Of a stretch of 48,039 nt of DNA, positions 2,884 to 48,010 are shown in pieces. The position numbers and the translations under genes are program-made. Origin of the DNA: Amoebophrya sp. A120 (taxonomy: Eukaryota > Protista > Dinoflagellata); assembly GCA_905178155.1 (NCBI GenBank), contig CAJINV010000007.1, positions 352,597 through 400,635 on the forward strand, read 5' to 3'. Position 1 is the stretch's first letter, and each line of letters starts with the position of its first letter. A model generated the notes under the pieces. That model did not search any database and was not told the DNA's origin. It saw nothing but the letters and a program-made list of their open reading frames with translations.

Positions 2884-3413
2884 TAGTTTAAAAATAGAAA
2901 TGATATACTTCTGGCGATAGCTGTTTTGAAACACTTCTCGGCAAACGACGTAGAAACAACTCTACATCACCGACCGGCGAAAATCCACTCGATTCATATG
3001 ATTTTTCTTTCAAATAATTCCATTTAGAGGCGCCGGTAGAAGTGAAGCACTTCGCTAAAGTATCTGCATCTTCATACCATCTGCTCTACGCCACGAAGAG
3101 GGCCCATAGGTTTCACAAAAACAGGTTTTTTGGTTTGATATTCTGAACAAGATTGGTCGGGCCGCTTTGATCTTGCTCTAACGAATATTATCAAAATAAA
3201 AGTCTAGACTGTTCCGATAAAAAAACGTCTCGCGCGGCTTGTTCACGTTTATACGCCACTGCGTCATTTTGATAAAACAAGTAGAAGCAGTATGCCAACC
3301 TCCGACTGTGGTGATCGGACCGCTACCATGCTACAAATACAATCCGGCACGAATCCTCTATCGCGAAGCGAAGTTTCGACCTCAAACTATTATCGCGAAG
3401 CGAAGTTTCGACC

Positions 3414-5849
3414 TCAAACGAGTCCTCTAGCGTGAAGCAAATCAAGGGGGAAAACGACTGGAACAAGCTTTGTTGACATACCTGCGACTCGACGCCTATC
3501 GGATGCAACGTCGGCCTCATTGCCGCCGCTGAGAAAATAAAGCACCGTTAGCTGCACCGGCGGGCCATCGTCGCCGTTCGCCGGAACAGTCCACGGCCGC
3601 AAGCGACATTGCGACGGACTGCGGCTGCGACTCTGGCTGCTACTCTGGCTGCTACTCTGGCTGCGACTCCGGCTGCGACTCTGGCTGCGGCCCCGCTTCC
3701 TTTCATTAAGGCTGCTGCATCAGTTGCAAATATCCCTGGAAGTCTGGCAACGTCAAAACTTGTGGTGAGCTGCCCTGTGGGATAAAAAAAAGACCTCAGC
3801 ACTGAACTCGTCAGCACGCTACGCCGTGCATTCCAGGCCTCATGGTCATGGGGCATGCGCATGAAAAGCCTGCATGACAAAGTTTACAATCTTTCGCACC
3901 ACATCCAGATCCAGGGATAAATATCTTGACGCGATGCATATGTCTAGCTGTCTGTATTCGACGCTTGTCGTACCATCATATCCAGAGTAGATGATAGTTT
4001 GTACTCGACGACCACCAGTCCGTTCCGGGGACGGGGACGCAGGCCGGGTCCACATTCCGAGATCTTGCTCCACCAAACGGAGCTTCTCGTCCACCAGCCG
4101 GCGCTTCTGCAACATCGCCCGCCTGAAACCACGCTCCGAAATCCGATCCGGGACTATCGCGTAAACCCTTCTAGAGTCAGGGAACAAAGGATTGATCCAT
4201 CGACCTTGACAACCAACCCATTCCTCCGTCAAAAACGTCTCCTGGTGCCGAAGGAGGAGAAATTGCACATCAAGAAGCTGCACCACCACCATTCGCTTCG
4301 CTGGCTCGGAAAGGGTCTGGAGACGGTCTTTCAACTCCTGCGTCGTCTCCCGAAGGGAAGTGGGCAAAAACGTGTTCATCTCCAACTCGGATATGTCTTG
4401 TTGTAGGGCTTTCTGAAGGTCATCACCGATACTCTCCGCGTCCATAACGCGACGCACCGTGTTGAGGTGGAGAAGCCGCCTGGTGAACGTCAAATAAACC
4501 TGCCGCAAGCGAATGATATTGGCATTGCCCACAGCTTCCTCGTACCTCGACGGGACCCTCTTTTCTAGGGTTTCCGCACTCACGAAGGCCCGACTGACGT
4601 CCTTCCTATAATGCAAGAATTCCTTCCACGCGTCCGGGGTCTGGCAGGGAGGGGCAAGGCCTCTGGCCTTCTCACCACCAGATGCGAGCGCGTCGCCAAG
4701 GCCTGTCCTCCAAATGTCCCTGATGGACCTGTAATCTTCCAGCACCTGCTCACTCACAAGTTCACCTGCGAGGCGGTCCTCCAAAAAACGCAGTTCCTGA
4801 TCGATTATAGAGCGCCTCTGCAACGTGTTCCGTGGCACCGTGTTCTGGACCACCCCTCCAACGGCAGCGGCCTCGTCCAAAAGCTTCGCCTCAAGCATCT
4901 CCTGGAGGTGAGACCGATCCTCTTTCAGAAGCTTCGCCCTCTCCCGCCGCACCTCAAACTCCACGTCCGTCTCCACTCGTCTGCCGGACCGCGTCTCCTT
5001 GTCTATGCGGGTATGAACCTCTTGAAGCCTCTGGTTCACAAGCAGATGATCCTTGACGAGCTGAGATGTCCACTCCTCCGCGGGAGCGCCGTCCTCCAGC
5101 AATTCTTGCAAAAGCAGGTGTCGAAATAAGGACGAATCTGTCGTCGAAGGTGAGGGTCTGAGAGGACGGTACTGCATCGGGAGGCCACTTAGGATCCCCT
5201 CTGTCTCGATAGCAGAAAAGCTTCGCAAGTGCAGATAGCGTGGTATTACTCGATCAAGCTCCTCCGGGGACAGAAGCTCCAGGTACCGCGTATGACCCGC
5301 TCAGGTGATACAATCTGCTCAGACATTACAACAAGTAGAAGCGCAGCTTTATTGTGATGCAAGCGGTGCGCGGCCACCTGGGTTCTTACTCTCAGAGGAA
5401 TATTACGCAAGACAAGTTCTGGAGTCCCAAACCCCCGCACAAAAATTTTATTAATCTGGCGAAATTTGTCTTGCAGAAGGCGGAGGGCTCTGCGATTCTG
5501 TCATGCTCGTCAGGCAACACAAAATCCACATTCTATTGTAGCAGTTGAGATCATTGTAACACCTGAGCACGCTATACTCCGAAAACGCTACATCTTCAAC
5601 GAAGCTAGGATCAGGCCACCGCGCCTCGTCCTCCTCCGGCCGCAGGGTAATCATCGCAGTGTCTCCATCAGCAGCTCCGCTACTAGCAGCTCCGCTTGCC
5701 AGACTTACCGCACCGGCCGACTGAGCGCAGCAAGCAAGAAGAGCAGCAGCACCGCCTGTAATCGACGCAACCCTTGCGGCGAGAAAACCTGCCGACGTGC
5801 CGCGCGCAGAGCCCTTCTTGGCTCTGTGTTTGTCTTTGTTCACCATCAT
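3414..5849 (-). CDS. Unknown signal-peptide/coiled-coil protein, paralog 2
   Basis: ORF 5451-5849 joins ORF 3846-5228 through a 339-nt intron (FSEY|LHLRS). Shares RRERAKLLK and R.LVD.KL motifs with paralog 3. 3' end uncertain: probable intron at ~3721-3934 followed by an SR-rich tail. Confidence 0.72.
3721..3934. mobile_element. Degenerate introner (boundaries uncertain)
   Basis: Inverted pair TATCCCTGGA (3731) / TCCAGGGATA (3910), internal GCATGACAAA, possible direct repeat TGCAT at 3716 and 3935. Confidence 0.45.
5238..5573. mobile_element. TIR-bounded non-canonical intron (distinct family)
   Basis: ATAGCGTG...CACGCTAT inverted ends, 3-bp direct repeat ATA; excision keeps the frame. Confidence 0.7.
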
Positions 5850-6239
5850 TTTGGATAAATTAGAAATGACGTTTTTCCACCTGCGGGGGTAGAATGACTA
5901 CAGAGAAGATGTATATACAACAAATTTATGGCGAAAAATCGAAATCTATTTGAAGGTCGTGACCTTGTTCTACAGAAAGAAAGAATGTTGATTTGTGGCT
6001 TGAAGAAAGATGATTCGAGACGAAAGTACAGCTATTTTTATGCGGTTTTAGTGCTGGTACAAAAGTGCTTAAAGTCGATAACGGTTAAATCCGAATCAGT
6101 GGCGTTTAGTTTTTTTAGATGATTTGCTTTTTGTGTACTAAATGAGCTCCTTATAATTCCACTCGTCCTGCTTCCAAAACAAACACAAACAAAAAAAAGC
6201 TAGCGACTGTTGCTGTCGATTGACCAATGCAAACGGTCT

Positions 6240-6944
6240 GCGGTTTTCCTGATCCTGATTATGCATACAAGGAGGAGCAGATTGGCCATATTTGTTCTGT
6301 GTTTGTCGGAAAATGATCTATCGATTGCTTCTTCAAGATCGCGTGAAAGAAGATCCTCGGTGATTACATAAAGAACTTTGATTTGTCTTGCGGTGAAGGT
6401 GAAGGAGCTTCGGTACTACAACGACGACCGGGCATTGTTCACACTTTTGTAGTGACGAATGATATGCTTCGTGCGCTTTTGCAGGTTTGTCTCGATCCTG
6501 AACAGTCTCCGCTGCCAAACGCGCAATTCTTGCGGTGCACGTGCAGGAGAGGACCGAGCATTGTGATTTCGCACAAAAACTTTCATTTGTTTTTCGGTGC
6601 ACCAGGACCAGGGCCTTCCGTACTACAACGAGATAGACCGAGCATTGTTCACACTTGACTTTATTTGTGGCGAATGACGTATTAATTCAGGCCGAACACC
6701 AACAAAGTCGCATCCATGAAAAGTTTCTTTCCACTCTGTGCACCTACTTCTCGATAGCTTGATTTGCGATGAGGAGCCAGAAGCAAAGTAATGTAAGTAG
6801 TCCTACATTCGCAGCTTCAAGAGCGCTCTAAAGTATTGTAAAACCATTATCATACATGTTGCTGTATACTAAAATTATCCTTAGATAAATCATACACAGT
6901 TTTTTTCCAAAATACCAGCCACATTCCGGGCACGATCCCCGAAT
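6240..6944. repeat. Segmental duplication copy 2 (upstream region of paralog 2)
   Basis: Matches 2300-2883; a fainter third copy lies near 13990-14040. Confidence 0.9.
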
Positions 6945-7908
6945 CGGCGTCCAACTACCGACTCTAGAAGGGTAGTTGACAACTTTTTCACTACAAACCC
7001 CGCAACGCTTCTTTGAGGAAAAGGCTTCACGTTCAAATCGCAATGGCCGCACCACCACTGACATAGAACGAGAAGAAGATCATGTTCAGCTTTAGTATGG
7101 TGAATTCGGAAATTATATGAAGAAAGGGAAAGCACGACTGTATGCCAACAAAAACTACTTCAGAAACCACATGCGCCTACTTGTGGCGCAAGCTGTTGCT
7201 GTGGTGATTGTAGGTCTCAACATGATCTTCATCCTCTCCGCCGTAGAAGGTGAGCAGCTACTAAGTAGTGGCACCGCCGAACTACACAAGTAACTTGCGT
7301 TCCTTCCTCGCGCTCGCTGCCTTTTATCGGCGGTACTTACAACTTTGTGGGTCTGGGTTCGCGCTCCCCATATGGATTATATTACTGCTCACATGAGATA
7401 TCGTACAGATGGATCATCAACACAATCTCGAGGATGATCGTCGTGGAGCTTTTGTTCAATACTTATACGTCTACATGCTTCTAGAAAAATTATACATGGT
7501 TCTGGTGCTGACGAGTCCGTTTTGGTGGAGAGAGACGAGAGGAGCACGTGGATTTTTAAAATACTGGTTGTATGCACTGTGATTATATCTCTTTTTTTTT
7601 CAATTTGATGAATAAAATATAGCCAGGCGCATCAAGAGGCTCGCCACTCCCTGGCCCAACGTGTGGCCCGACGTAAAATCCAAGAGAGCACATCACGCGA
7701 CTGTTGCCTTCTCTAAAACTGCCGGCAGTCTTCTACCTGCATCTTCTGATACTTATCATCTTCTGGTAATTACTTCACGCCAACGCTTTCGACGTCGCAA
7801 AATAGAAAAGCCTTTTCTTGTCTATTGTCTTGTGTTAAAGTTGTAGCGCTCGTCCTCGATTCCCCACGAAAAAAAATCAACAAATCCCTACCCTTCCGAG
7901 ACAACGAC

Positions 7909-10900
7909 TCACGGCTTCCCTTTGCAGCCGCCCGAAGGGTATCAAGTGTAAAAATGTCTGGGTCTGGAAGAATGCGCGATTTGTCATGCTGCTTTTCCAT
8001 GACGATGACCCATGAGGTCTGGAATGCCGGAGCTAGCATGACATATTCTGCGAGAACTTTCTAGTGCCTATCCTGCATGAGAAACTACCTCCCGACTTGG
8101 TCAAAATTGGGCGACTTTTGGTAATCATCGTTCGTTCGTATGGATCGGCTCTGCCGACCGGGTGACCCATCGCCTTGCATATAAATGACCGACATAGGCG
8201 ATCCCCGTTACGGGACATACATATTGGCCGTACGGAAGGGCCCTAGGCGCTACATACATAGTTCATCCTAGCGCCTACCACTTCGGTCGGGACTAAGTCA
8301 GCCTGGTCCTGGGGGTTCACAGCGCACTAGCCATCTGCTAGCATAAACAGACTGGGTTTTACAAACTGTAACTGATCTAACATCTCATAACAGTGAGGCC
8401 ATCATAAAGGTGCGCTAAAACGAGTTCGGGGCGCTCCGTACGGAAGGGAGCCTTTCGACGCGGCGCACACTCTCCTGTAGAGTTTTACGCGGAACACGGA
8501 TGGGCCGCGCACGCAACTCAGTCGAGGAGGACACACGCTCCCTCAATAATAGAGGTGGTAGTCACTCACGGCGGCTGGCCTGTCTGAAAACGGTAATCCC
8601 CACCTCCCATCTTCCCGGTTCGTCAATGACTCTGGCAAGCCATGTTACTTAGACTCCCCGCACATGCAAATATGGGACGGCGGGGGGGTTTTAAAAAGAG
8701 CTCTCGCCGTCCTTGATCTACTATAAAAGAAAAAGCCCTATAATTTCGGCGAGGCTGTTTAACTATTCGCTAGCTGATGGCCTCCTGTATAGTAATGGTC
8801 TCCCTTTTCTCCTCCTTTCCCCTTTCTCAATTTAACTCGCCTGCATCCTCCTGCTAATTTAACTCGCCTCCCCATTTATCTCGCTGAAAGCTCCGTCCTC
8901 AATTTCACTCGCCTGCCAATTTATTCGCGACGCCTACGGCTTTACTTCGGCGCATGGTGTGAAATCTTCGCGGCTTCTCTTCTCAGCTCCTCGACCTCTG
9001 CGCAGCGTTTTGCACTGTTGCCTTCGTTTTTTTTTTTTTTGGATCCGCGCCGCGCTTCAGTTTCAGTTTCAGTGGAGCGCCCCACCGGGCGGAATACTTC
9101 TGGTGGTAGACGTGGCCCAGGGATTTGTGGCTTCGCGCCGCGACGACTTGATGGGGGTCCCGCACCCCCCCTCCGTTTCCAAAAATGCAGTTTGTGCGTG
9201 AATGCTGCAAAACCTCCGACACCGCGGCACAAGAAGGAACAAGCTCCTCTTCACCATACACAAACCCAAAGAAGGAAATCTTCGGGATGAGGATATTGAT
9301 GACCGCAATCAATGACGCCAATGGCAACTACAACCCGAAGTAGGGGAGGGGTAGCTACTCCCGCACAACGCGCTGAATTCGCTTTGTACGTGTCGAGCCG
9401 GTAGCAGCGGCACACGTCCGACACAGCTTTTTTCACGTCGACGAAGAACTTTTTTTTTTTTGCTGCATCGGAAAACCCTAAACACCTAAACCCATCTATT
9501 TACTGCGGGAGGAAGCAGCCCCGGATTTTGTGCGACGAAGTTCGTAAAACGGTCAAAAAATTATTGTAGTGGTTACGCTATTGACTGTGTGCGCGCTTCA
9601 AAAAAACTTAAGCCCACACAGGTCCGCATTTAGCTACCGCCCGCCCTAAATGAGGCACGTCCTAACCCCGGTGGCAGCGAGGCAGTTCTTTTTTTTTGAA
9701 AATTACGCCGGGCGTTTGCAGGATAGCAGTAGCCGCAGATGCAAACCTGCGGCTGCTAAGACGGTTGTAAAATTAAATAGCACGAATAGAGTACTTTTAT
9801 TTGTACAAAGCGAAGTACTACGAACGAACGAGGGGGGAGGGGCGGGACCGTTGAACCCCCTGGCAAAAATCATGTCGCTCTGCTCTCCACCGGTGGAAAT
9901 CGAAGCTCTGCCCCGAACGATCGCCGTCTTCTGATATCAAGTGATAGACCCATACCCCCCAAGCAACAACCCGCTGGCTAGGCGGAAAAAAAAGAGAAGC
10001 CCCTGCGAGGACGCGGGGTCCGCGGAACGACTAGCGCTACAAGGCGTGGATCAAGTAAGACTAAGTGCGAAGACCACTAGGAGACGACAAAAGACTGTAA
10101 AAGGGTAGAGACCTACATCTACATGGGACAACACCGGGCACGGGGAAGATCTAATTTTTTAAAGGCGAAGGAGCGTACGAATTTGCGATCTAGCTCCTTG
10201 GACAAAACAAACGAAGAGCGGCAAAGGCGAAGTGCTTAATAACGACTACAAGATGGCAGGAGTCATACAAAGCATACATAGCAGCAGCAAGCAAATCGGA
10301 TTCGCATTGCTGTGCACCGGCAGAAACTTCAATCACAACGAAACCCAACCCCTCAGCCGCGAAGCCGAAGGGCCGGGGGCCTGGCACCTAACTCGAGGTT
10401 TGGAGTCCAAGCACCGACGTCCTGTTCTTGACATCTTGTTCTTTTGTAAGGCATGACTGCAATTCTTTTGTAAGGCATTGCAATTCTTTTGTAAGGCGCT
10501 TGTTTCTCTGAGTGCGGTCGATCTTCTTGGCCTATCGTCGTCGCCTGTTTGAAAGTTTGGACATTTTTGAGGCGCCCCGCGATTCGCCTGAAGCTTCTCG
10601 GGGTGATCTTGGCCCTGTCGCGTTCGTTGGCAAATTAAGGGATCCCCTGGAGATCCTTAATCTGACTGCGCTGAAACGATCTTAGAAGTATGAGGGCAGG
10701 ATCTTAAGACGAACGCGCCGGGTCATATTTTCCGGCAGTCCTCGAGCCTGCCGGGCCTTTTCTTTTTTAATTCAAACGGGAAATAGTGTTTTCGTTTTTT
10801 TCTATGATTTCGATGCTGTGCGTTTTTCAAAAATCTCCGGAGTGCATTTCTCAGACTTTTCAGTCGCTCGGCCTGGTGTCCGATTTTCGGTCCGTCACTA

Positions 10901-13726
10901 TGTCACTTCAATCATAGGGATCCTGCGTCGCCTGAAGTCGTCCCCCCGCTCCCCCTCCTGTGCTGTCTTGCAGCGATCTCCGAATAATCCGCTGCATTGT
11001 CTGCGCCAGCGTTTCCCCCTCTCCCGCCGCTTTTTGTTTACTATTTTCTTGCTCTTTACTCTTTTGCCTTTTTCTTGCTATTGTGCCACCATCCTCCGCC
11101 CCTCTTTTCTTTGAGCCCTTTTCTCCCCCCTCCGGGCTGTTCCTCCTCCTTGCATTTTCACTGTTCCTCTCTCTTCCTCTTTGTCCTGAAGAGCTACTTG
11201 CTCCGCGGCCTTGAGTCGCCCCTGCCTCTTTTGAGTATCTACGATGCCCTCCGTTCGAAAACTCTAAGGAGTACGGTGCTCGCGATGTCAGCGGGTCCAC
11301 TTCTGCGCGTGTTTCTCCGGCCGGCCCTCTTTCCGTCTTGCTTTCCTTTTTTCTTATTTCCTCTTGCTTCTTTGGCTTCCGTTGAGCCGTCGGCTTGTCA
11401 TTTCCTCCCGTACTTCTTACCTCTTTGCCGGTGCTACTCCGCGTTATCCCTATGCTTATGCCCTTGCTTTCTAGCGACGCTCTTGCTTTTGGCTGCACTG
11501 CTGAGAATCTGCCTCCTTGTGCCTCTTTATCGCGCCGCTCCTTTTGCTTTTCATTTATTCTCTGGGCAGCCTCCTTCTCTCCTTTTCCCCCCTTAATTTC
11601 ATTCAGTGCGGGCCTCTGCTGTTTTGCTGGATCGCTTTCCCCTACGGCCAGCCTCTGCTCTGTTCTTTTCTCCTTCGGCCCTTCCGCTGTATTTTGGTTG
11701 CTTTGCATTGCCGCACTACCTATGTCGCTCTCTTCCTCCTCGTCTGCTTGATTTTCTGCACCTGTCCCCTCTTTTTCCCAGATGTAGTTCCGGAGCTCCT
11801 CTGGTAGTAGCCGCCTTTCCTTTCTTTCTATTATCGAGAGCGATAGCGATTGCGCCACTGCTCCCCCTCTGTCGTCCTCTGTACTGTTTTCCCTCGCGTC
11901 CCTTTTGTCTTGCTCGCTCTCTTCTTTCTCCCTTATCATTCGCTCGGCATTCTCCCGTAGTTTATCCATTTCGTCTTCGCCTGCCTTCTTTACTTTCATT
12001 CTCTCCACTAGATGCGCCACCTCTTCACTTTCCTGCTCATCTTTCCACTCTTTGAGTATTCCTCTGATGTCGCTATTCGCTCCAATGTCTTCGGGTTCGT
12101 CTATTCTTGTAAGCTCTTCCGGGCATAGGGCTCCTGTTATAAAGTCTTGCCTTTCAGTCTTTGTCATCTCTGGCCAAGCTTCTACGTCCGGCAACTCTAG
12201 CACTCCTTCTCCGAAGTCATATATCGGCCATATAAGCGATTTTTTATCCATTTCCGACACATCAACGGCCTTGAGAGTCTTGCAGGTTACTATCTCTACG
12301 CCTTCTTCCACCCTCCTCTCTTCTTCCTTCACCTCGAGACTTCCCCTATCGATACACATTCCCGCCGTGCCGCGGTGGCCCTGAAATCGTAGGCGTCTCT
12401 GAGCTTCCTTCTTCTCTATTCCGCAGCTCTTTTCTAGCCTTTCCTCTAATTGTTGGTGTAGTTCTTCTATCTTCTCCGTCAGCAATCACAGATTTTTCCA
12501 TGCTGCAGATTTAGCATGACAAGTTGCAATCTTCCAGACCCAGACATTTTTACATTTGATAAAGGGCTTCGGCTAGAGCTGCTCCGACGTTGAGGTTGAT
12601 CACGGCGGGGCTGGGCACTAGTACTTCCCGTACGACTATCAAATGTAAAAATGTCTGGGTCTGGAAACTTGTAATGCTGAGTTGTGAATAGTGAATGGCA
12701 ATGGTCTGTAATGCTGCATAGCGGCCAAGCATGAGAAATATTTCCGGGGCTTAGTGTTGCGCTTTCCGCATGACAAACTGCGTTTTTGCATGACAAGCAA
12801 AAGGGTCTCTTTCTGGACACGCATCACAGACTTTTTAGTCATGCCAGACAAGCATGACAAACCTTGCACCCTTCCAGACCCAGACATTTTCACATTTGAT
12901 AACGACCTCCAACACGACCGTCGAGAGCCGGGCTGCTGCTTCCGCTCGGCTCGCGTGCCGTCCATCCAAACCGTCCAAGGTGGTGGTTGACCATAACAAG
13001 AAGCTTCTGGTCCACGAGCTGACGCTCCTGCACCGTTGCCCTTTTGAATTGACTCGGAGTAAGCTGGTCTGGGACCACTCCTTGCACGCGGCCTTCGCGC
13101 AAAAACTCCTCCTCCTGCACGAGGAGCCCACACTGCAGCTTGAGAAGCTTCGCCCTCTCCCGACGCAGCTCCGGCAGGGTAAGGGTCCCGAGGCGGGCCG
13201 CAAGCTCCTCCTCCGTCTCGCTTTGCAGAGGATCAACGTCTGGGATGCGGAGGGTTCTTTTACACGACAGGATATCAACATGATTGTCGACCGCGAGAAG
13301 CTTCTCGTTCACCGAGAGAAGCTTCGGAATGTGCGACAGAAGCAGTTCTCGGTTCTTCCGCAGAAGCTCGTCCTCCATTGTCTCTGCTGCAGGCGCCGAA
13401 AGACGCTCCTCGCCTCCCACCTGCAGAAGAGGGTCATGCTCCTCCTCGATGCCGCGATAAAGGCGTTCCTCGTTAAGAGTTGAGCGAAGTTGCAACAGAT
13501 TGGCCAGCTCTTCTGCATCTACCGTTCCCAGAGCAGCTGCGCTCCCCAGACGTACCGCCCCGACCGACTGTGGGCAGCCCGCAAGAAGAGCTGCAGCAGC
13601 ACCGGCTGCAAAGATCGACGTAACTACCCTTGCAGCGAGCGGAAAACATGCGGACGTGCAGCTACCCCCGCTGGCACGCAGAGAAATAAACCTCTTGGCT
13701 TTGAAATTGTTCATCGTCATTTTCAA
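7909..13726 (-). CDS. Unknown signal-peptide/coiled-coil protein, paralog 3
   Basis: ORF 12890-13726 plus exon 12631-12562 plus exon 7934-7909. Spliced C-terminus RRSSSSRSPSGGCKGKP* resembles the paralog 2 tail SRSRSPSQCRLRP. Confidence 0.75.
8140..8790. ncRNA. Candidate structured non-coding segment (family unknown)
   Basis: Several perfect stems (8169-75/8196-202, 8244-52/8269-77, 8675-82/8705-12, 8395-404/8775-84), repeated 13-mer CCGTACGGAAGGG, no long ORF. Confidence 0.3.
10440..10497. repeat. Three copies of CTTTTGTAAGGC
   Basis: Read directly from sequence. Confidence 0.85.
10908..12485 (-). CDS. Intronless E/K/R-rich ORF inside the giant introner, apparently 5'-truncated; function unknown
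   Basis: 525-codon open frame with strong purine bias on the coding strand, starting at the cargo/introner junction; no domain recognised. Confidence 0.5.
   Translation of the reverse strand: MLTEKIEELHQQLEERLEKSCGIEKKEAQRRLRFQGHRGTAGMCIDRGSLEVKEEERRVEEGVEIVTCKTLKAVDVSEMDKKSLIWPIYDFGEGVLELPDVEAWPEMTKTERQDFITGALCPEELTRIDEPEDIGANSDIRGILKEWKDEQESEEVAHLVERMKVKKAGEDEMDKLRENAERMIREKEESEQDKRDARENSTEDDRGGAVAQSLSLSIIERKERRLLPEELRNYIWEKEGTGAENQADEEEESDIGSAAMQSNQNTAEGPKEKRTEQRLAVGESDPAKQQRPALNEIKGGKGEKEAAQRINEKQKERRDKEAQGGRFSAVQPKARASLESKGISIGITRSSTGKEVRSTGGNDKPTAQRKPKKQEEIRKKESKTERGPAGETRAEVDPLTSRAPYSLEFSNGGHRRYSKEAGATQGRGASSSSGQRGRERNSENARRRNSPEGGEKGSKKRGAEDGGTIARKRQKSKEQENSKQKAAGEGETLAQTMQRIIRRSLQDSTGGGAGGRLQATQDPYD
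12637..12901. mobile_element. Introner family A
   Basis: TATCAAATGTAAAAATGTCTGGGTCTGGAA TIRs; TSD ACGAC. Confidence 0.93.
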
Positions 13727-14839
13727 ATTGACGGCTTAGATATCGACGTCAAATAGTTACTTATACAACCTCCCGTGAGCTTAACTGCAGAAAAACAAGA
13801 ATGTTGATTTGATATTTTTGATAGATGATATGGATAGAAAAAAGTTGTTGTTTAAAATGAGATGACTCAAGCGGAAAGTTCTACAGACGAGCGGGCGGTG
13901 AAAAGCTTCAACATACACTTCTTCCGTGCGCGTGATACTACGACCACAATTGCTGTTCTGAGTTGTAAGTGCTTACAGTCGATACGCTACAGGTTCCGTA
14001 AGTACCACAACGACCGAGCATTGTTCGCACTTCTGTGCCGATACACTGATCAAGAATCATTGGCCCGCTGTTTGATCTTTATTTTTGTGTGATCACTGCT
14101 CGGGCAAGAACTGCAGCCGACGTGTTCCGATTCTGTGCTGACACGTGCGCCGTGAAAGCCGCGCACTTCATCGAAAACGGAAAGTCGAGCACTTGTTTGA
14201 ATTTTTTGATCCAGGAATTCAAATTTTCACTTCCTGTACGCATCACTTTCAGCAAGAACTGACATTCCGAGTTGTTCGGCCGCGATTCTACAATTTCTTT
14301 GTTTTTCCAGTGTGAACACTACTGCCTCCCTGTCGAAACTCGGCCTGGTACAGGTTCGAAGCAGGACAACTCGTCCGTAGCAGGACAACTCGTCTCATCA
14401 TCCGTACCAGGACAACTCGTCTTCTCCGTGCTGTACTTACTCTATGTAGAATCTTCTTCTTTCCTACACAATGATTCTTTCCCTCACTACAAGCCCAAAA
14501 CAGGAATGTCGTCTGTGAAATCAATAACACTGTCGCTACTTCTTCGAGCGAGAAGCAAAATTCGCGGCTTCTGAAAAGATCAAGACCGGAACACTTCGCG
14601 GTCACATCCCTTTCAGAACCTACTTTTGTGAAGACCAGGGTTAGATGAGAAATAATAAACTCTCCTCGAGTACTAGAATGGAGGGCAGGGACCACGACGA
14701 TGTTGATACTAGTACTTGGCATGGTACGGAATAACAGCAGCTCCATCGTGATTGGCGTTTTTTCTCTACTTGAGCAAGAACTGCAACAACAACAAACAAC
14801 ACTCAACCGCTCAACTTCCGCAAAAGGAAGAACCTTCCT

Positions 14840-15340
14840 CGCAACTCATGAGAGGGGCCTTCTTGGTCTCCGGTCCTCGGTCCTCAGTCGCTCACAAGGG
14901 AATACTTGAAGAGCTAAGAAGGTCGAAAGCTGAGACACATGAAAGGGAGTTTCTTGGTCTCCGGTCCTCGGTCCTCAGTCCCTCGCATGGTAATACATGA
15001 CGAGATAAGAATGTAGAAAGCTGAGACACATGAAAGGGGGTTTCTTGGTTTCCGGTCCTCGGTCCTCAGTCCCTCGCAAGGTAATACCTGACGAGATAAG
15101 AAGGTAGAAAGCTGAGACACATGAAAGGGGGTTTCTTGGTCTCCGGTCCTCGGTCCTCAGTCCCTCGCAAGGTAATGGCTGACGAGATAAGAAGGCAGAA
15201 AGCCCAGACACATAGGAGGGGGCTTGTTGGTCTCCCATCCTCGGCCCCCAGTCCCTCGCGAGGCAATATATAAAGAGAGAAGAAAGGAGAAGGGGGACAC
15301 ACATGAGCGGGAGTCTGTTGGCCTCCGGTCCTCGGTCCGG
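14840..15340 (+). repeat. ~91-bp tandem repeat array (left TIR)
   Basis: Core GGTCTCCGGTCCTCGGTCCTCA, ~5-6 copies; GAGACACAT at 14932, 15023 and 15114. Confidence 0.92.
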
Positions 15341-18300
15341 ACGCCCGCGAAAGTGCGGAGCTTTTTCGTGTGTTTTTTGTTATTTTTTCGCTCGCCAGTT
15401 ACAGTTCTGGAGGAGCAAGTCGCTGGGGCCATGTCGGCCGCCATTGGAAGAATTCAGGCGCGCGCGCCCTTTTTCTTCTTCAGAGCTGTAGCACCGTTGA
15501 AGGCGATGGAGGTGCTCTGAGCTGTCGCTGCGAAAAGCCGCCCGATTCTCTATGGCGAACGCACTCGATAAAGCTAGGGCCCCTGCGATCCTCCGGCGGC
15601 ACACTCGGCCCAGCGTTGCTCCTCCTACGAAATCGCAGGCAGATCATCAACACCACCCCAATATGGCACCTCGCTCCTCTTCAAAACAGCAGGAGTGCCG
15701 CAACAGTGGCAGCAGTCAATCAAGAGCGCTCTCGAAGGTCATTTTTGAGGATCTGCAGCGCTACGGTAGTAGCAGCCAGAAGAGCACCGCGGAGGAAATC
15801 AACCGCAATCGCGTTGGTTCTGAGGTCCTTCCCAAGCGAGCAGATCGGGAAGTTTAAAAGTGGCACCGTCGTCACAGCTTTGACGATCCCGATAATTAAA
15901 TCAAGTTAAGAATCAGAAGCAGGCCACACGGCATAACGGGCGAGGTCCGGTCTCTAGAGTTATCCAAATGGATGGAGATGAAAGCAATGGGCCTTGAACA
16001 TTTGACGCCATGCCCAGGCACGAGAGAAAAAAAGCGAGAAAGCTATCCAAGCCAGGCGATCGGCCATTTGTCTTCCGTGGCAGTATTCTTCTGGGCTTGT
16101 CAAGTATCAGGCTCCTGCTTCAGCAGCAGCAGCACCCTGCGAGCTTTACTACGGCTCTTACGAAGCGAAAGGGCCGAGCTGTCGCGGTTTGAGCAATGCC
16201 GTCGAGCAAGATAATACGAGGGATCACGTTGGCGGATTGCAGTTTACTTCTCGGCTTTCTGCAATGTGCAGAGCGGAGCGCTCCCATCCTTTACAGAAAG
16301 TCCGCTACTTGCTCCAATATGACACAGATTGAGATAGTGAGAAGATCAACGCACCCACTTCAGACCAATTCGGCGCAGAAGATCAGCACCGCCTTCAAAT
16401 GCATCCAGATCCGTTTTCTTATTCTACGACTTTCATCCACCACGCAGGCCGGTTTTTTTTCATTTCCCAAAACCAAAGCAGGACAGGGAAGCTGATAGAC
16501 TCACTTACAGCCCAGACCTCACAGCTCGGCGCATCATCATCAGAACGCGCACGATCGGAGGCGGCGGAATTGTGGACGCGGATGTCAGGGCGAAAGTATA
16601 TCTCCTCCCAAGTTGTTGACTAGTAGACTGCTTCCGAGGTGGCCCCTTTTCATTTCTACTCCGCCGACACTGGCAAAGAAAAGCGTAGAAGTGGAGCGAA
16701 GTGACTACGTGCGATCGAGTGAGAGAGCGAAACGGACTGACTATGTGCGAAGAACAGCCCAGGAACAAAGGCCGCGACTATGTGCGAAGGAGTGGGAGAC
16801 AGCGAGTCTAAGTGGGTAGCAAGCGAGTCGGGCACTGCCCTACTCGCCTGCCTGATGTCTTTCCGCAGCGCTCGCAGTCGAACTCTCGGCCAAGTTGGTC
16901 CCTCGCTGTTTTGACGCGACGGAACGAAGCAGAGGACGCGCGCGAGACAGCGTCACTAGTCGGCTTCACTTGCCGGGCAAGCTTTCCCAAACCGACACTG
17001 GCTAAAGCGTAGAAGTGAGGCGAGGCGACTCTGAGCGAAAGAGTGGGCGAAGTGAAGCGACTACGTGCGAAGCACAGCCCCGGATCAAAGAGCGTGGCGG
17101 TGTGCGGCGATTTCTCGCCGTTTTGAGTTTGACGCGACGGAGCCGACCGAGGTGGGCAGTTCCATTTGGACGCCTTCTTGTGCCACCATCGTCGCCGGTG
17201 TGTGATGATGGTGCTGGTGTACATATGTCGAGCAAGAGAAGATCTCTCTTGCCACTCATGTCACAAAGAAAGTCGGGCGCGCCGCGCAGATGTCGGCCAA
17301 CGGCGCTCGCGTATATCGGTCACCGACCGGCTGAGAAGGCCGGCGATGTCTTTTGAGTTCGGTCCTTGGTGTACTTTTACACGAAGAAACTGCGCGCGCA
17401 TTTGAATGTGGAAGGAGTTTCCGAAAGTCGGCGCGCCTATAAATACCTAGTGCCGCGCGGGGAAAACCTGTCCAAAAGCGTGCGCCCGTGTGCCGTAGCC
17501 CGAGCGCAGCGCCATCATCATCAAAATGCGGCAGGTTTTTTTCCAGCAAGCGGCGGCCTACAACGCTCCGGAGATTTCCTGCAAGCTACGGAGGCAGGCG
17601 GCAGGCAGGTAAGTTCCCTCGCGTGCAACGACACGAGTATCAGCATCGCCTTGCTTCGCCACCTTTTGCTTTTTGCGGGGCCGCAGAAATGCTCGCCAAC
17701 GGCCAACCCACGCACTCGCTGCGGGTCGCGCGGTGCTGTGATTTCACAGGAGGAGACCCTGGCGCTGCAGTTGCTGCGCGTCTGTGTCGCTACTGGATCG
17801 ATGTCATCAAGGATGTGCGGCTACTTGCTCCACGTGAGTGATGGCGTATCTATATGCGCGCGGGCTACTGACTGGCAAAATGCAGCCTTTTTTCGTAAGA
17901 GAACGCCACCCCCTTCGCTTCGTTCCAGCGCGCAAACTTTGGGCCATTTTGTAAGATTTCAGCTCTTTCTTACACTAAGAACGCAACACAGTCCGGCCAA
18001 ATGGGCTCGCGCGCTGACAAGCCTGCCGGGCCCGAAGGGTATTTGCCTGCATGCTGTTGGATGGCCCCACCAACCAAGGCCAACCAACATCGGCGGAAGG
18101 TGGTGCCGTACCAACGGGCCGCCCGCCGCTGGCCAGACGGTGCACAACCAGGGACCACATTAGCAACGCTAGCAGCGCAGCCGAAAGGGGGGCGAAGCAA
18201 GCAGTTTTCAGCTACACGGACCGGCTTTCGTCAGCGGCGGCATGGATGTCGTTGCGCACGAGGTCCCCCGGGGGGGGGTGCCGAAAGAGGCCGGCGCGTT

Positions 18301-18719
18301 TTTTTTTCGTTTTCCCATCCGGCCCGGCGGTGGGCAGTTGACTACCCCTCGCGAGGGCCCTGAAGGTGGCAGCGGAGGGGGAACCAACGCCATCAGAGGA
18401 GAAGCGGCGCGAGCTCGGCATGATCGCGCCGTCGGTCGAGAAAGATCTCTGGGCGCGCAAAACGAGCTGTATCCGGGCGCTGTAGCTGTACTATAATAGC
18501 AGAGCGGATGGAAGTCGACTTCTCAGACACAGCGGCATCGGCTTCGGAGCCACATGCGCCGGCGCAAAAGTGGGAACGCCAGTCGGCCCGCGTCTGGGAC
18601 GGCAGCACAGCGGCTCGCGGAGTCTGTAGATGTGCTGTGAATCGCTGCAGCGGGCCAGCACTTTGCGAGGGAGGTACTAGCAACACCGGCGGGCCGGCTA
18701 CCGGGACCGGAGGCCACAA

Positions 18720-19200
18720 ACCTCCCTCATATGTGTCTGTTGTTTCTACCTTCTTGTCCCGTCGCGTATTAATTGCCCCCAGATGAACTGAGGCCCGAGG
18801 ACCGGAGACCATCGGCCTCCTTCTTATGTGTCTGGCGCTTTTGCCTTCTTATCTCGTCATATATTACCTCGCGACGAAGTGGGGACCGAGGACCGGAGAC
18901 CAACGCCCTCCTTCTTATGTGTCTGGCGCTTCTACCTTCTTATCGCGTCATATATTACCTCGCGATGGAGTGAGGACCGAGGACCGGAGACCACCAGCCT
19001 CCTTCTTATGTGTCTGGTGTTTCTCCCTTCTTATCTCCTCATATATTACCTCGTGATGGAATGAGGACCGAGGACCGGAGACCAACAACCTCCTTCTTAT
19101 GTGTCTGGCGCTTCTCCCTTCTTATCTCCTCATATATTACCTCGTGATGGAGTGAGGACCGAGGACCGGAGACCAACAACCTCCTCTTTATGTGTGTCAA
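18720..19200 (-). repeat. ~91-bp tandem repeat array (right TIR, inverted)
   Basis: Core GAGGACCGAGGACCGGAGACC, ~5 copies; reverse complement of the left array. Confidence 0.92.
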
Positions 19201-19842
19201 GTGTCTGCCATTTTATGTAGTGCGTTGCTCTAAATGAGATTCCTTTAGGCTCTTCTGTCGTTACTTTTTCAATTCCTTTTAGAGCAAAAACACGAAACAC
19301 GATGGAGCTGCTGTTATTCCGTGCCATGCCTAGTACTTGCGGCGATTTATCCGTCTTGCCGGGAGGACGAGATTATTCTTGTTTGCTGCCAGGTGTGCTA
19401 GGTGGAGTGGTCCGCCGTTAGGGAATACAAATCGGAGGATGAGAATCAATTAAGCTGTTCTCGGAAGATGTTGAGAATCAAGCTGCTCTTGTCGGTCTGC
19501 TTCACTCGTTTATTTTCCTCGTGAGGAGACCACACTTTACTTTCGTCCAAAATAACACCACTCGCGCGACATTTATTTCCGTAACACAACCAAAAGCCCA
19601 TAATTCCTTCTTCCTTCATTTTGGTCATCTGCGACCGGAAAATGATTTTTCGCCAAAACGACAAACTGGTTTGTTTCCCCTACTGATGTTGACTTCTTTT
19701 TTCAATGAGGAATGGTGAAAGTTATATCTCTTCGACGTCCTGTTCGGCATCACAAATGATCCGTAGACCACCCTGTAGATTTACTTGTTCGCTACAACTT
19801 CTACCGCGAGGACTACACCTGCTTTCTTGCATTCCTCATCCA

Positions 19843-31100: not shown

Positions 31101-33870
31101 TTCCGTAGAAATAAAGATCGCTCTGTCCTAACGCAACTACACTCAGCAACACAAATTCACTGCGTTCTACTTCCAGACATCCGCGGTGGATTTAAGTATT
31201 TGCATTTGATAAACGAACGTTGGCTTTGAACTCTGGGACTTTGCGAGTGTCACCGCAGCCTGAAATTGCTCTGGGTCCTCAGCGTCGCCTCGTTCGATGG
31301 TTAGTACGTTCCAACCGTAGGCTTCGAAACTGTTTTTATTTTTGTAGAATTCTACTTGCAAAAACTGCATGAGAAACGTTTAAAACGTTGCGTTGATAAT
31401 GATATTGGAGCCGCTGCATCACAGATTCAATTTGGACAAGCAACTACCCCCTCTACTAGTATGAAACATTTCTATACCGCTTCCCGACATTCTCCGTGAA
31501 CGCCAGCTCCGTGCTACCGTCGATGGAAATCTTGTTGTCGTCGTAAAATACGATCAACTTCGACAACTTCCAGTGCGCAGCGAGACTGCAATATCCCAGA
31601 GAAAAAATCTAGAAGGGCATATAATTTGTATTGCAAAAATGAATACACAGAAAATTTCGTCATGGACGGCCCCAAAAAATGCTGTTTAGAGTCCGCAAAA
31701 AAGATTTTTTTATGTATTTACTTTCGCATATACAAATATGACCTGCCTGCTTTTTTCTGTGTGATATGCAGGCCTCCGAAGCCACCCCCTCCATCATGCA
31801 GCCGTCCCCGGTTAGCACGTAGGTGTAGGATATCCTGTGTAAAAACATCCCCACCCCAGAGTTGTCATGCAGATCTGCAAGCGCAAGAGCATTTGTAATG
31901 CGCATTCCCATGAGAGGCATTTCTCATCGTATTTTGGAACTTGTAATGCTGTAAGCAGGATAACGAGATGGATTTGTTATGCGGCTCCCCTTGCTAAACT
32001 GCATTACACTACAGCCTGCAACTTGTCATGCGTGGCTCCCAAAACTTCGAGGTTTGTGTTGCAAAATCCCCGTCTTGACTCTGGGGTGGGGACGTTTTTA
32101 CAATCGATATAGGAGTCGAAGAGCGGGAACCCGGGCTTGTTAAACCGCGCGGCCAAATGCTTCTCGCATAATGCCATCCCCACCGCGTTGGTAATGCCCT
32201 GCCCAAGGGGTCCGGTGCACACCTCCACCCCGGGCGTGGCGAAGTTTTCTGGGTGGCCCATCCTATGTAAAAACGTCCCCACCCCATAGCTGTCATGATA
32301 ATCTGCAAGCATGGTAAAAAAGTTTCTCATGCGGAGCCCTATGAGAAGCGTTTTCTCGTCGCGTTTTGGAATTTGTGATGCTTGAATCAGCATGATAGGC
32401 TAGGTCTGATGCTGCCGGAGCTAACTAAACAAGACTACAGCACCCAGAGGCCAAACTTGTCATGCGCAGCAACCAAAGCTGGTTGATTTGTCTAGCAGAA
32501 CTCCCATCTTGACTCTGGTGTGGGGACGTTTTTACATAAGATATGGCCCGGGGTTTTGCTATGGAGCTGGCGGAAGAGCTTCAGGTCGTCCAGAGAAACT
32601 TGGTAGCTGATAAAAAGGTTTATTTTAGACGCATAAAAACTTACTTCACCTTTTGAATTTGAAAACAAATCTACTGCATGACAAGAATCTGATGTCGTCC
32701 ATATATCACGATCGATCGCAGGAGAAAATTGGTTCTCACTCGTGCTGCTGCCGGAAATTATAGGCTACGCCGATAATAATAAACCTATACCCTGTCAAGT
32801 GCAGCATGCAGTATTGCAGCGCGCACGCGTGTCCGTTCGATAGAACAAAGCGATTATCAAATGCAAAAATGTCTGGGTCTGGAAGAATGCAACGCGTGAT
32901 GCTATTTTTGGAATCTAAAAAAATCTGCATTGCATGAGTAGCAAAGGGAATGCAATTTTTGCTACGCTGAGAAAGCATTTGTCATGCGGAAGAGGCATCA
33001 AGAAGCCCTCAGAATATCTGTATTGCTAGAGTATGCATCACAGACATCATGGCTCACAGAATCTTCCAGACCCAGACATTTTTACAGTTGATAGCGATCC
33101 CGGTTCAGCCACTTCGGATTCTCCGGGGAGAAATGCATGATCTTCCCGAATATCAACTGCAAAAATGTCTGGGTCTGGAAGATTGCAACTTGTCATGCTG
33201 TTTTTGGACTCTAAAAAAATTTGTGTTGCATGACCCAGCAAGAGGGGCATAGTTTGCGCTACACGGACAGGGCATTTCTCATGCGGAAGGTGCACCAGGA
33301 AGCCCTCTAAAAGTCTGCGATGCTAGTCCTGCATTACAGGCATCATGGGTCATGAGAAATATGCATGACAAGTCTTGCATTCTTCCAGACCCAGACATTT
33401 TTGCATTTGATACCGAACAACGCAGCCGCTAATGGTGCGCACCCCATTGGCGCTCCCGGGTGGCCGGAATTCGCCTGCTGAACCATGTCCGCAGCCAGGC
33501 ATTATCCGTAGGAAAAACGTCCCCACCCCATACTTGTCATGCAGATCTGCATGCTCAGCATGTGTGTCATGCAGGTCTCCATGACAGGCATTACCTAGTC
33601 GCGTTTCTGAATCTGTCATGCGCCAATCAGGATGACAGAGAAGTGGATCTGTGATGCGTCTGAACTAGCTAGGCACGACTACACTGCGTAAGTAGCCAAA
33701 CTTGTCATGCGTGAGTCCCAAAGATGCTCGATTTGTCTTGCCAAAGTTCCAACTTGACTACGTGGTGGGGACGTTTTTACAAGGGATAGGCATCGGATCG
33801 TGTTTACGGCTAAAACGGATTTCTCATCGTGCGGACCTGGTGGATTTATATGATTGGCATAATTCGCCAT
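28110..33870 (-). CDS. TKT: Transketolase (17 exons)
   Basis: Spliced motifs [77 protein letters not shown]; 12 TIR/TSD introns, 3 GT-AG introns (32607-32790, 31330-31477, 28902-29038) and 1 ambiguous intron (~29932-30053). Confidence 0.97.
28229..28509. mobile_element. Introner family A
   Basis: TIRs; TSD GATCA. Confidence 0.88.
29405..29663. mobile_element. Introner family A-related
   Basis: TIRs; TSD CGGTG/TGGTG. Confidence 0.85.
30087..30295. mobile_element. Introner family F
   Basis: TATCCAAGAAAAAAACTG / CAGTTTTTTTCTAGGATA; TSD ATTTC. Confidence 0.9.
30359..30593. mobile_element. Introner family F
   Basis: Sister of 30087-30295; TSD CAGCG/CAGTG. Confidence 0.9.
30655..30911. mobile_element. 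Introner family A
   Basis: TIRs; TSD TAGTT. Confidence 0.9.
30930..31211. mobile_element. Introner family A-related (degenerate)
   Basis: TATGCATTGCAAA / TTTGCATTTGATA; TSD AAGGA/AACGA. Confidence 0.8.
31592..31766. mobile_element. Introner family F-like
   Basis: TATCCCAGAGAAAAAA / TTTTTTCTGTGTGATA; TSD TGCAA/TGCAG. Confidence 0.82.
31831..32109. mobile_element. Introner family C
   Basis: TIRs; TSD TAGGA. Confidence 0.92.
32259..32543. mobile_element. Introner family C
   Basis: TIRs; TSD TGGCC; splits the GHPE motif. Confidence 0.92.
32855..33093. mobile_element. Introner family A
   Basis: TIRs; TSD GCGAT. Confidence 0.93.
33151..33412. mobile_element. Introner family A
   Basis: TIRs; TSD CCGAA. 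Confidence 0.93.
33503..33788. mobile_element. Introner family C
   Basis: TIRs; TSD GGCAT. Confidence 0.92.
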
Positions 33871-44497: not shown

Positions 44498-44678
44498 GAT
44501 GATGAATCAGCGGGGTTTTTCATCTTCATTGTAAGTGGGGTAGTGCATAAAAAGATTTCACAACGAGTTGAATTATCTGTCTTCCGCGACCGAATAATTT
44601 TATCCGACTTCCTCAGAACTCACTACTTTGCGTGAAGGCTACAGCAGTTGCAAGTGGGGTATTGTCGGCTGTGAGACT

Positions 44679-45912
44679 ATGTGCGTGTGCGTGTGCGAGT
44701 GTGCTTGGACATTTGCACACGCACACGCACACCCTGGATCTGCGTGGTGGCGGTGTGCACACGCACACGCACATCGCACACGCACATCGCGCGCGCGCAC
44801 AGCTGTGAGATTGCACTCGCACACGCACACGCACATCGCACTGATGTGCGTGTGCGTGTGCGTGTGCGTGTGCGAGTGTGATTGCACATTTGCACACGCA
44901 CACCTGGATCTGCGTGGTGGCGGTGTGCACACGCACACGCACACGCACACGCACATCGCGCACGCACATCGCGCGCGCGCACAGCTGTGAGATTGCACAC
45001 GCACACGCACATCGCACTGATGTGCGTGTGCGTGTGCGTGTGCGTGTGCGTGTGCGTGTGCGTGTGCGTGTGCGTGTGCGTGTGCGTGTGCGTGTGCGTG
45101 TGCGTGTGCGTGTGCGAGTGTGATTGCACATTTGCATACGCACACGCACACGCACGCCTGGATCTGCGTGGTGGCGGTGTGCACACGCAAACGCACATCG
45201 CGCACGCACATCGCGCGCGCGCACAGCTGTGAGATTGCACTCGCACACGCACACGCACATCGCACTGATGTGCGTGTGTGTGTGCGTGTGCGTGTGTGAT
45301 TGCACATTTGCACACGCACACGCACACCTGGATCTGCGTGGTGGCGGTGTGCACACGCACATCGCGCACGCACATCGCGCGCGCGCACAGCTGTGAGGTT
45401 GTACTCGCACAAGCACACACACACGCACACGCACATCGCGCGCGCGCACAACTGTGAGATTGCACTCGCACTCGCACACGCGCACGCACATCGCACAGCT
45501 CTAAGATTGCACTCGCACGCGCACACGCACATGCACATCGCGCGTGCGCACAGCTGTGGGGTTGCACACGCACACGCACATCGCACAGCTGTGAGATTGC
45601 ACTCACACACGCACACGCACATCGCGTGTGCGCACAGTTGTGAGGGTGCACTCGCACACGCACACGCACATCGCGTGCGCGCGCAGCTGTGAGGTTGCAA
45701 GTGCACACGCACACTTGCACACGCACACGCGCTTGTGCGCGTGTGCACGCGCGAGCGAGATTGCACACGCACACGCACGCCGCGCTCGCACCTGTGAGGG
45801 TGCAAATGCACACACACACTCGCACACGCACACGCAAATGCGCTCCCAATCGCACCCGCGAGATTGCAGCTGCAGTTGCACGACAAGCACATGCACATAC
45901 GCACGCACATGT
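44679..45912. repeat. (TGTGCG)n/(CACACG)n compound satellite with higher-order unit
   Basis: Alternating-orientation hexamer tracts with recurring anchors CCTGGATCTGCGTGGTGGCGG and CAGCTGTGAGATTGCAC. Confidence 0.95.
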
Positions 45913-47355
45913 GCGTCACCGCCCACCTCGAGGTGGGCGGGGCGGTGACAGCAAGGTCCGCTCGGGCGCCCACCTGGAAGAGGGCTGGGCGGTGACAGCG
46001 AGGTCTCGTCGAGGACGTGTGTCACCGCCCCGCCCACCTCGCTCGAAGTGGGCGGGGCGGCAACAGCGACGAGGTCGGGTCGACGACGTGCGTCACCGCC
46101 CCGCCCAACTCGAAGTGGGCGGGGCGGGGCGGTAACAGCGAGATCTGGTCGCACAGGTGGGCGGGGCGGTAAAGCGCGTCCGTGTATCACCGCCCAGCCC
46201 ACCTCGAAGTGGGCGGGGCGGTGACAGCAAGGCGCATGTCTGGTCGAGGACGTGCGTCACCGCCCCGGCCGCCTCGAATTGGGCGGGGCGGCAACAGCGA
46301 GGCTCGGTCGAGGACGTGTGTCACCGCCCCGCTCACCTCGAAGTGGGCGGGGCGGTGACAGCAGGGCGCATGTCTGGTCGAGGACGTGCGTCACCGCCCC
46401 GGCCGCCTCGAAGTGGGCGGGGCGGTAACAGCGAGGTCTGTGCGAGGACGTGTGTCACCGCCCCGCCCACCTCGGAGTGGGCAGGGCGGTAACAGCGAGG
46501 TCTGGTCGAGGACGTGTGTCACCGCCCCGCTCACCTCGAAATGGGCGGGGCGGTGACAGCAAGGCGCGCGTCTGGGCGAGGACGTGTGTCACCGCCCCGG
46601 CCGCCTCGAAGTGGGCGGGGCGGTAGCAGCGAGGCCTGGTCGAGGACGTGTGTCACCGCCCCGCCCACCTCGAAGTGGGCGGGGCGGTGACAGCAAGGTC
46701 TGGCCGTGGTCGAGGACGTGCGTCACCGCCCCGCCCACCTAGAAGTGGGCGGGGCGGTGCCAGCAAGGTCTGGCTCTGGTCGCGGACGTGTGTCACCGCC
46801 CCGCTCACCTCGATCGAACGAAGTGGGCGGGGCGGTAACAGCAAGGTCTGGCTCTGGTCGAGGACGTGTGTCACCGCCCCGCCCACCTCGAAGTGGGCGG
46901 GGCGGTGAAAGCGAGGTTTGGTCGAGGTGCGTGTGACCGCCCCGCCCACCTCGAACGAAGTGGGCGGGGCGCTGACAGCAAGGCGTTGCCCTGGCCAAGG
47001 ACGTGTGTCACCGCCCCGCCCACCTCAAAGTGGGCGGGGCGGCAACAGCGAGGTCGGGTCGACGACGTGTGTCACCGCTTCACCCGCCTCGATGAAGTGG
47101 GCGTGGCGGAGCGGCAACAGCGAGGTCTGGCCGCACAGGTGGGCGGGGCGGTGACAGCGAGGCGTGGTTCTGGTCGAGGACGTGTGTCACCGCCCCGCCC
47201 ACCTCGAAGTGGGCGGGGCGGTGACAGCAAGGCGCATGTCTGGTCGAGGACGTGTGTCACCGCCCCGGCTGTCTCGAAGTGGACGGGGCGATAACAGCGA
47301 GGTCTGGTCGAGGACGTGCGTCACCGCCCCGGCCGCCTCGAAGTGGGCGGGGCGG
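45913..47355. repeat. Tandem array of GC-rich palindromes (~60-70 bp period)
   Basis: Unit core TGTCACCGCCCCGCCCAC-CTCGAA-GTGGGCGGGGCGGTGACA (e.g. 46651-46692), roughly 20 copies. Confidence 0.93.
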
Positions 47356-47387
47356 AAGTCGGTCGGAGCCGGTGCCGGCCGCGGCCG

Positions 47388-48010
47388 TGCTAAACCGGGG
47401 CTATTTTTTTGCCCGTCCAAGAATTTTCAAAGAAAAATAACCCCCGAAAAGCGCCAACTTCCCACCCCCCCTTTTGGCCCGATTCCACGGGCCCCCCTTG
47501 CTAATTTGCTTGCTAATTTCGTTGCTATTTCGCTTGCTAATTTGCTTGCTAATTTCCTTGCTAATTCGCGTGCTAATTCCTTTGCTAATTCGCGTGCTAA
47601 TTCCCCTTGCTAATTAGCGTTCTATGCCCCCCTCCCGAATTTCCCCAAAAAATCTGCCCCGCCCTTGCTATTTCCCCGGGCTTTTTTTTCCAATGCGATT
47701 TCCCTGTGTTTTTGGCAGGCAGCGAAAATAGCAAAAAAAATAGCAAAACGATAACCCGCGCGAAGGGGGTGGCAGGCTCCCCCGGCCGTTGCGCGGACGA
47801 AGGGCGGCCTCCGTTGCGTGAGGGAGCCCCGGCCCTCCGGGCCTGCAGAGCGGGAGTCCCGGCCGGCGCGCTTGCGACCCTAGCCAAGGGCGCTTCAAAA
47901 ACAGGCGCCGCCCCCCGGACCGCCGCCCGGGTGCCCCCGCGTGGCCCCGCGGGGGCGCAGCGGCTTCGCGCAAATGATTGGAACTTTCAAAAAATAGCAC
48001 GGATTTAGCA
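47388..48010. mobile_element. Possible MITE/TIR element with TGCTAAT 12-bp repeats
   Basis: Imperfect inverted pair 47388-47407 / 47991-48010; ~10 TGCTAATT units at 47498-47616. Confidence 0.45.

Follow-up and report, generated by a model that had tools for sequence, protein, structure and literature searches.

A 4,627-nt intron in the dinoflagellate Amoebophrya sp. A120 is best explained, with a probability of about 0.75, as a 269-bp introner into which a 4,353-bp element, likely a 5′-truncated non-autonomous retroelement, was later inserted, the whole being excised exactly. This expanded introner (the giant; Table 1) sits in the final codons of a minus-strand host gene, within a 48,039-nt stretch of DNA (the window) that is dense in short elements with terminal inverted repeats (TIRs). 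We compared it with seven of 11 sequencing runs: one DNA run (X1), four RNA runs from one sample (X3–X6) and two raw-read runs (X9 and X10). X3–X5 count as RNA here, since introns present in the DNA of X1 are skipped in their contigs.

Table 1 Features of the host gene, the introner and the nested element (window coordinates; TSD, target site duplication)
Feature	Position	Strand	Remarks
Last host exon, coding part	7909-7934	-	stop TGA 7909-7911; exact transcript match to at least 7825
TSD AAGGG, left copy	7935-7939	n/a	
Introner left arm, 189 bp	7940-8128		TIR 7940-7971; 3′ intron end on host pre-mRNA
Nested repeated element, 4,353 bp, likely 5′-truncated	8129-12481	-	right end +/- a few bases
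(ACGA)3 tail, putative 3′ end of nested element	8129-8140	-	
Highest-depth part of insert	8208-8641	-	summed contig depth 1462 against about 47 in unique flanks
13-bp inverted copy of terminus 8128-8140	9819-9831	+	
525-codon orphan ORF, E/K/R-rich	10908-12485	-	no Met before codon 43; runs open to right junction
Introner right arm, 80 bp	12482-12561		TIR 12530-12561; 5′ intron end on pre-mRNA
TSD AAGGG, right copy	12562-12566	n/a	
Host middle exon, 75 nt	12562-12636	-	includes both duplication remnants; RNA records 8, 11, 17
Neighbouring family-A introner, 265 bp	12637-12901	n/a	TSD ACGAC; spliced too
Host first coding exon	12907-13723	-	spliced product 304 aa

Results

The arms of the giant form a complete introner

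The TIRs that the initial annotation placed at 7940 and 12561 are 32 bp each and complementary at 31 of 32 bases, and the AAGGG duplication reported with them flanks both. The TIR sequence begins TATCAAGTGTAAAAA, which fits the TAT-N7-AAA introner start, and family-A ends in the window likewise begin with TAT, seven bases and AAA. The giant is one of a repeated family, with 11 further family-A end pairs listed in the window in addition to sibling contigs; in 11 of the 12 listed pairs, the giant among them, the 5-bp duplication is perfect. Ends of another introner family, with end motif D16, occur between 1604 and 38206, 11 of them being listed.

Together the two arms measure 269 bp, against 239–268 bp for ten copies in the window. 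Joined, they are colinear end to end with all ten of these copies at 60–75% identity, meeting at TCAT/GCAA. The right arm is as first described (about 80 bp), and the left arm, put earlier at about 145 bp, runs on to 8128. This extension came from pairwise alignment. The segment 8085–8128 matches the distant in-window copies at only 16–26 of 43–44 positions; both the limit at 8128 and the absence of a lost middle were settled by sequencing-run contigs, 12 of which in X1 pass from 8128 directly into right-arm sequence, and joints 8127/8128–12487 with 4–5 letters between are also seen. The suggestion that about 50 bp of the normal middle had been replaced is therefore dropped, the arms being the whole introner. 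An empty sibling in X6 (record 25) differs from the giant by one position in 69 letters and one in 51. The arms alone are a complete 269-bp introner, and they belong to a young subfamily in which almost identical siblings lack the insert.

The 4,627-nt intron is excised to the base

In RNA runs X3, X4 and X5, contigs pass directly from 7934 to 12562, leaving out 4,627 nt that comprise the element and one copy of AAGGG. The joint thus occurs in three of four RNA runs, all from one sample, with X6 lacking it; its depths in X3, X4 and X5 are 10.1, 11 and 3.3, and the shorter side of the joint spans 29, 75 and 75 letters, so that the X3 support falls below 31 letters. X4 record 11 matches 7825–7934 and 12562–12636 with no differences before passing to 12907 onward, as the X5 contig also does, which shows that both introns were removed. 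An X3 contig (record 6, 8096–8190) crosses 8128/8129 with an exact match, so the RNA sample carries the insert. As the initial annotation had anticipated, excision restores the frame ending at TGA 7909–7911, and transcripts do join the 7934–7909 exon across the insert. None of the six registers tried gives the intron GT/GC-AG ends. What we observe is a non-canonical intron, 17 times the normal length, excised to the base.

The joints listed in the four RNA runs are the full 4,627-nt skip and the empty sibling only, and no exon skip appears among the loose ends listed for the RNA contigs in the region examined up to 12640. Contigs of X3–X6 give no cover of 8898–12341 at 97% likeness, which is not a sign of silence. 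In the raw-read runs X9 and X10 there is no 7934–12562 joint, and depth over the first host exon is zero. In X10, 306 reads from a homologous copy break off at 7923 and pick up again 16 letters on, with 12 of 14 letters like 12567–12580, a spacing that is as expected for a spliced or intron-free relative. The 3′ region 7340–7923 is common to another expressed paralog elsewhere, and all X10 reads bear that paralog's variants.

The 304-aa host protein has no family match and no homologue was found for it. Unspliced and spliced products (324 and 304 aa) differ only in the last few residues, so selection for splicing is weak here. A paralog of the host gene at 3400–5850 (minus strand) is 37% identical over 123 aligned residues, and an X3 contig skips two of its introns (3713–3940 and 5284–5574). 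The C-terminal likeness to this paralog that had been read into the spliced product is not significant, 110 of 1,000 shuffles scoring as well. An intergenic block is duplicated between the paralogs (2330–2880 and 6200–6940).

Modelled TIR pairing at equilibrium favours the wrong partners

In the published model, itself a proposal, TIR hairpins draw exons together in a spliceosome without U1 (PMC7789003). The initial annotation reasoned that TIRs would have to pair over 4.6 kb; excision across that distance (7934–12562) is observed, while pairing is a matter of interpretation and folding pairs the wrong TIRs. The TIR of the neighbouring introner lies 75 nt from the right TIR of the giant. When the four 45-nt ends are folded, the energies are −53.0 and −54.8 kcal/mol for own pairs, and for cross pairs −63.5 and −52.3 kcal/mol. 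The 3′ TIR of the giant pairs best with the 5′ TIR of its neighbour (−63.5 kcal/mol), and its 5′ TIR has a near-equal partner 75 nt away (−52.3 vs −54.8 kcal/mol). The modelled minimum-energy fold of the 5,081-nt pre-mRNA, a single 5-kb fold, uses the cross pairs and would loop out the middle exon.

Skipping of the middle exon is what a plain equilibrium hairpin model predicts, yet this exon is present in the RNA contigs; if folding chooses the wrong TIRs, excision needs kinetics or another signal. We favour ordered co-transcriptional commitment as the putative means of choosing the ends, with matching of the 5-nt repeats as the possible alternative. Two family-A introners 57 bp apart (32855–33093 and 33151–33412) face the same cross-pairing choice with no length asymmetry and make a useful control.

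A repeated element is very probably nested in the introner

The insert interrupts the middle of the introner at TCAT/GCAA with at most a few bases changed, and no target duplication of 2–11 bp is present at the 8129/12481 junctions. It is a repeat separate from its host: X1 bin depths from 8208 to 12113 run 1462, 227, 403, 237, 224, 138, 148, 118 and 70, against 45–51 in unique coding flanks, falling from about 30 times single-copy at the tail to about 1.5 times at the end of the open reading frame (ORF); these Logan depths are sums over contigs rather than copy numbers, and the assembly itself may come from the sample of X1. Variant X1 contigs across the interior differ from the window at 4–11 positions in interior pieces. 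One of them (record 6, 11906–12483, 11 differences) ends at the right nested junction and can be read as another copy leaving there, and a divergent version of 8117–8531 appears as X3 record 11, with its first 44 letters unmatched. Other copies of the insert therefore appear, from these contigs, to have other flanks. With empty siblings, a separate repeat, uneven depth and other flanks, the initial annotation's option of a second element lodged within an intron as a safe haven is supported, and we hold a separate element nested in a 269-bp introner, with exact 4,627-nt excision, to be very probable.

The long ORF noted earlier in the insert is real in the sense of exceeding chance, since none of 2,000 dinucleotide shuffles gave at least 520 codons. 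It found no homologue in Pfam, NCBIfam, PDB, ESM Atlas, or metagenome and viral contigs, and searches of a protein database (N-terminal region, near and longer lengths) also returned no match. A low-confidence single-sequence model (mean pLDDT 46) predicts a long helix at residues 136–203. Between ORF and tail, 2.8 kb of sequence contain no frame longer than 164 codons, and a Pfam scan of six shorter insert frames gave no match; across the ORF and these frames Pfam revealed no reverse transcriptase (RT) or endonuclease, and no insert ORF matched a transposase or recombinase.

The insert had also been described as hairpin-rich, which folding does not uphold: only one 150-nt window wholly inside it (10340–10489, minus, on one strand) reached z<−3, a further low folding score falling in the introner's own left arm. 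The sole strong predicted hairpin region is thus 10340–10460 (minus; z −3.0, 0 of 200 shuffles), adjoined by three short direct repeats at 10434–10497. Rfam gave one chance match (E 0.74), and no tRNA was found. An exact 13-bp repeat occurs in the high-depth end (8228–8240 and 8436–8448). One metagenome match (L001) to the 20-nt terminal pattern was rejected as chance, because it falls within ABC-transporter-like genes of bacterial type that BLAST does not align to the window.

Elsewhere in the window, a second large element of about 4.6 kb (14690–19350) has imperfect inverted ends and facing 91-bp tandem arrays (14753–15353 and 18704–19230), with an X1 depth of 672 at 14718–15151 and a weak zinc-ribbon match (E 0.002, below cutoff) at 16811–17260. 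A CA/TG-rich complex repeat (44660–45840) and a G+C-rich 64/70-bp tandem array (45900–47440) lie further on.

Anatomy points to a likely 5′-truncated non-autonomous retroelement

A fixed 3′ end with depth falling toward the 5′ end is the pattern of 5′-truncated retro-insertions. In the insert, a search for a non-LTR-type tail found the short (ACGA)3 on the ORF strand, preceded just upstream by a predicted 7-bp hairpin no stronger than in shuffles. Tail, ORF direction and depth gradient agree in placing the 3′ end at 8129, and the gradient, together with an ORF that stays open to the junction, fits variable 5′ truncation in these contig-level data. With no RT in the insert, such a retroelement would be non-autonomous. 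Judged on anatomy (tail, ORF direction and depth gradient), we lean somewhat towards a 5′-truncated non-autonomous retroelement.

Other classes were considered. An autonomous non-LTR retrotransposon was rejected for want of an RT/endonuclease ORF. LTR retrotransposons carry paired LTRs and a 4–6 bp duplication, and the insert has neither paired LTRs nor a target duplication. Penelope-like elements and retrozymes carry a hammerhead ribozyme in a terminal repeat; no hammerhead core pattern and no Rfam hammerhead was found in the insert. Helitrons have TC...CTRR ends and an A/T target, and the junction sequences lack Helitron ends.

DIRS/Ngaro elements have inverted or split direct terminal repeats, an internal complementary region and a recombinase. 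Of these features the insert offers only a 13-bp internal inverted match, with no recombinase match and the other end missing. That inverted tail copy is not accounted for by a simple LINE model: none of 300 shuffles reached the 12-base match tested, and the copy adjoins a 16-bp imperfect inverted match to 9156–9171, an arrangement that recalls an internal complementary region. A nested and spliced insert could then be a DIRS-like tyrosine-recombinase or LTR remnant, or a stack of pieces comprising the high-copy 500-bp end, a 1.7-kb unit (8128–9831) with 13-bp inverted ends and an ORF fragment. Missing target duplication and a depth that drops stepwise, with a bump at 9076–9509, would suit such an origin. 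Set against it, the insert has no long terminal or split direct repeats and matches neither a recombinase nor an RT, and some other copies swap 9773–9953, the segment holding the 13-bp inverted copy, for 33 nt yet stay colinear across it. We regard this origin as possible though unlikely.

The 4.6-kb unit is probably derived and probably correctly assembled

If the 4.6-kb unit were instead a parental or cargo form of family A moving on its TIRs, as the initial annotation offered, the 260-bp introners would be deletion derivatives and the ORF a mobility protein. Its TIRs and duplication are intact, a common deletion junction would give an equally clean join, and ORF-bearing TIR introners are known in Amoebophrya A120 (family 38, PMC12130899). 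The joined state is nevertheless common to copies only 60–75% alike, and the arms of the giant are 98–99% like the empty siblings; an old joined family with young arms makes the giant look derived. The ORF also enters the arm, leaving no room for an upstream region, and has no transposase match, although it could conceivably encode a very divergent enzyme. A TIR-mobilised unit should show even depth, in place of the roughly 20-fold variation seen, and at the junctions other copies seem to run into different sequence. We consider a parental or cargo form improbable and prefer nesting.

Least probable of all is a partly misassembled interior, or an ORF serving as an alternative last host exon via a short splice inside the right arm: the ORF does lie on the host strand 77 nt from the exon, X1 interior contigs vary as noted and none of the listed contigs bridges the nested junction on the right (12481/12482), but a second sample matches the one on the left exactly, DNA depth is present in 30 of 30 bins, unique flanks match with no differences, and the listed RNA joints include no such splice.

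Discussion

We propose that a family-A introner would first have inserted with a 5-bp duplication and become an intron without GT-AG ends. The second element then entered its middle without duplication, as seen at the junctions. Its arrival was likely by target-primed reverse transcription with an enzyme from elsewhere, which would have copied the (ACGA)3 tail first and stopped inside the ORF. Excision is probably set by the two intact ends and not by length. The ends may be chosen in transcription order, the upstream 265-bp introner being committed first, so that the 5′ TIR of the giant would be left to its proper partner, 4.55 kb away.

Farhat et al. (2021, PMC7789003) describe A120 introners as high-copy elements with a mean length of 240 nt and no transposase, bounded by TIRs starting TAT-N7-AAA and 3–5 nt direct repeats, with RNA-supported non-GT-AG ends. 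The giant resembles them in TIR start, direct repeats, non-canonical ends, splicing and membership of a repeated family, and differs in being 4,627 nt long and in holding a nested ORF-bearing repeat. Its ends, repeats and splicing place it among A120-type introners, and length, a typical rather than a defining trait, is its one atypical feature. As described there, the survey covered introns of 40–1000 bp, so a 4,627-nt intron lies outside its range. Like the giant, introner family 38 of A120 (Gozashti et al. 2025, PMC12130899) consists of TIR-bounded introns enclosing ORFs. In its published description family 38 shows homology to Copia/Gypsy and comprises several TIR-bounded copies that are nearly identical, whereas the contigs show no second TIR-bounded copy of the giant and its ORF has no match. 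Among the papers listed by our literature searches, which took in neither Roy et al. 2023 nor the PMC12130899 family table, none reports a nested or multi-kb Amoebophrya introner.

The insert also has structural counterparts. HeT-A, like HAL1, is an ORF1/gag-only non-autonomous non-LTR element. HAL1, as presented in PMC5753468, shares the plan of the insert: one ORF, no RT, a long non-coding 3′ part and RT supplied in trans. The insert departs from HAL1 and HeT-A in that no homology to any ORF1 or gag was found, its tail is a tandem repeat in place of poly(A), and it has no target duplication.

Several considerations temper the case: elements often nest in introns, euglenids are known to have nonconventional introns of several kilobases, and selection at this site is weak. 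Secondary insertions of transposable elements into introns are filtered from introner surveys as false positives (PMC9860276); the present case differs from such ordinary insertions in that the host intron is a non-canonical introner in a lineage reported to be without U1. According to PMC11282704, euglenid nonconventional introns also have non-canonical ends, TIRs and TSD-like repeats and reach several thousand nucleotides, by a mechanism described there as unresolved; they belong to another lineage and carry other end motifs.

The removal of introns that lack GT-AG ends, in a lineage reportedly devoid of U1 snRNA, is an open question (PMC7789003), and the locus is a natural experiment on it: introner ends unchanged, 17 times the family length, and an exact cut. 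More speculatively, a length-independent machine may match the two ends of each introner, through the 5-nt direct repeats or ordered commitment, overriding stronger or nearer TIR pairing, and introners could be splice-out landing pads exploited by an undescribed ORF-only (ACGA)n-tailed retroelement family. The frequency of skipping and the order of splicing at this locus would discriminate between excision models. The finding further suggests that the 1-kb ceiling described for the earlier survey (PMC7789003) hides a class of expanded introners.
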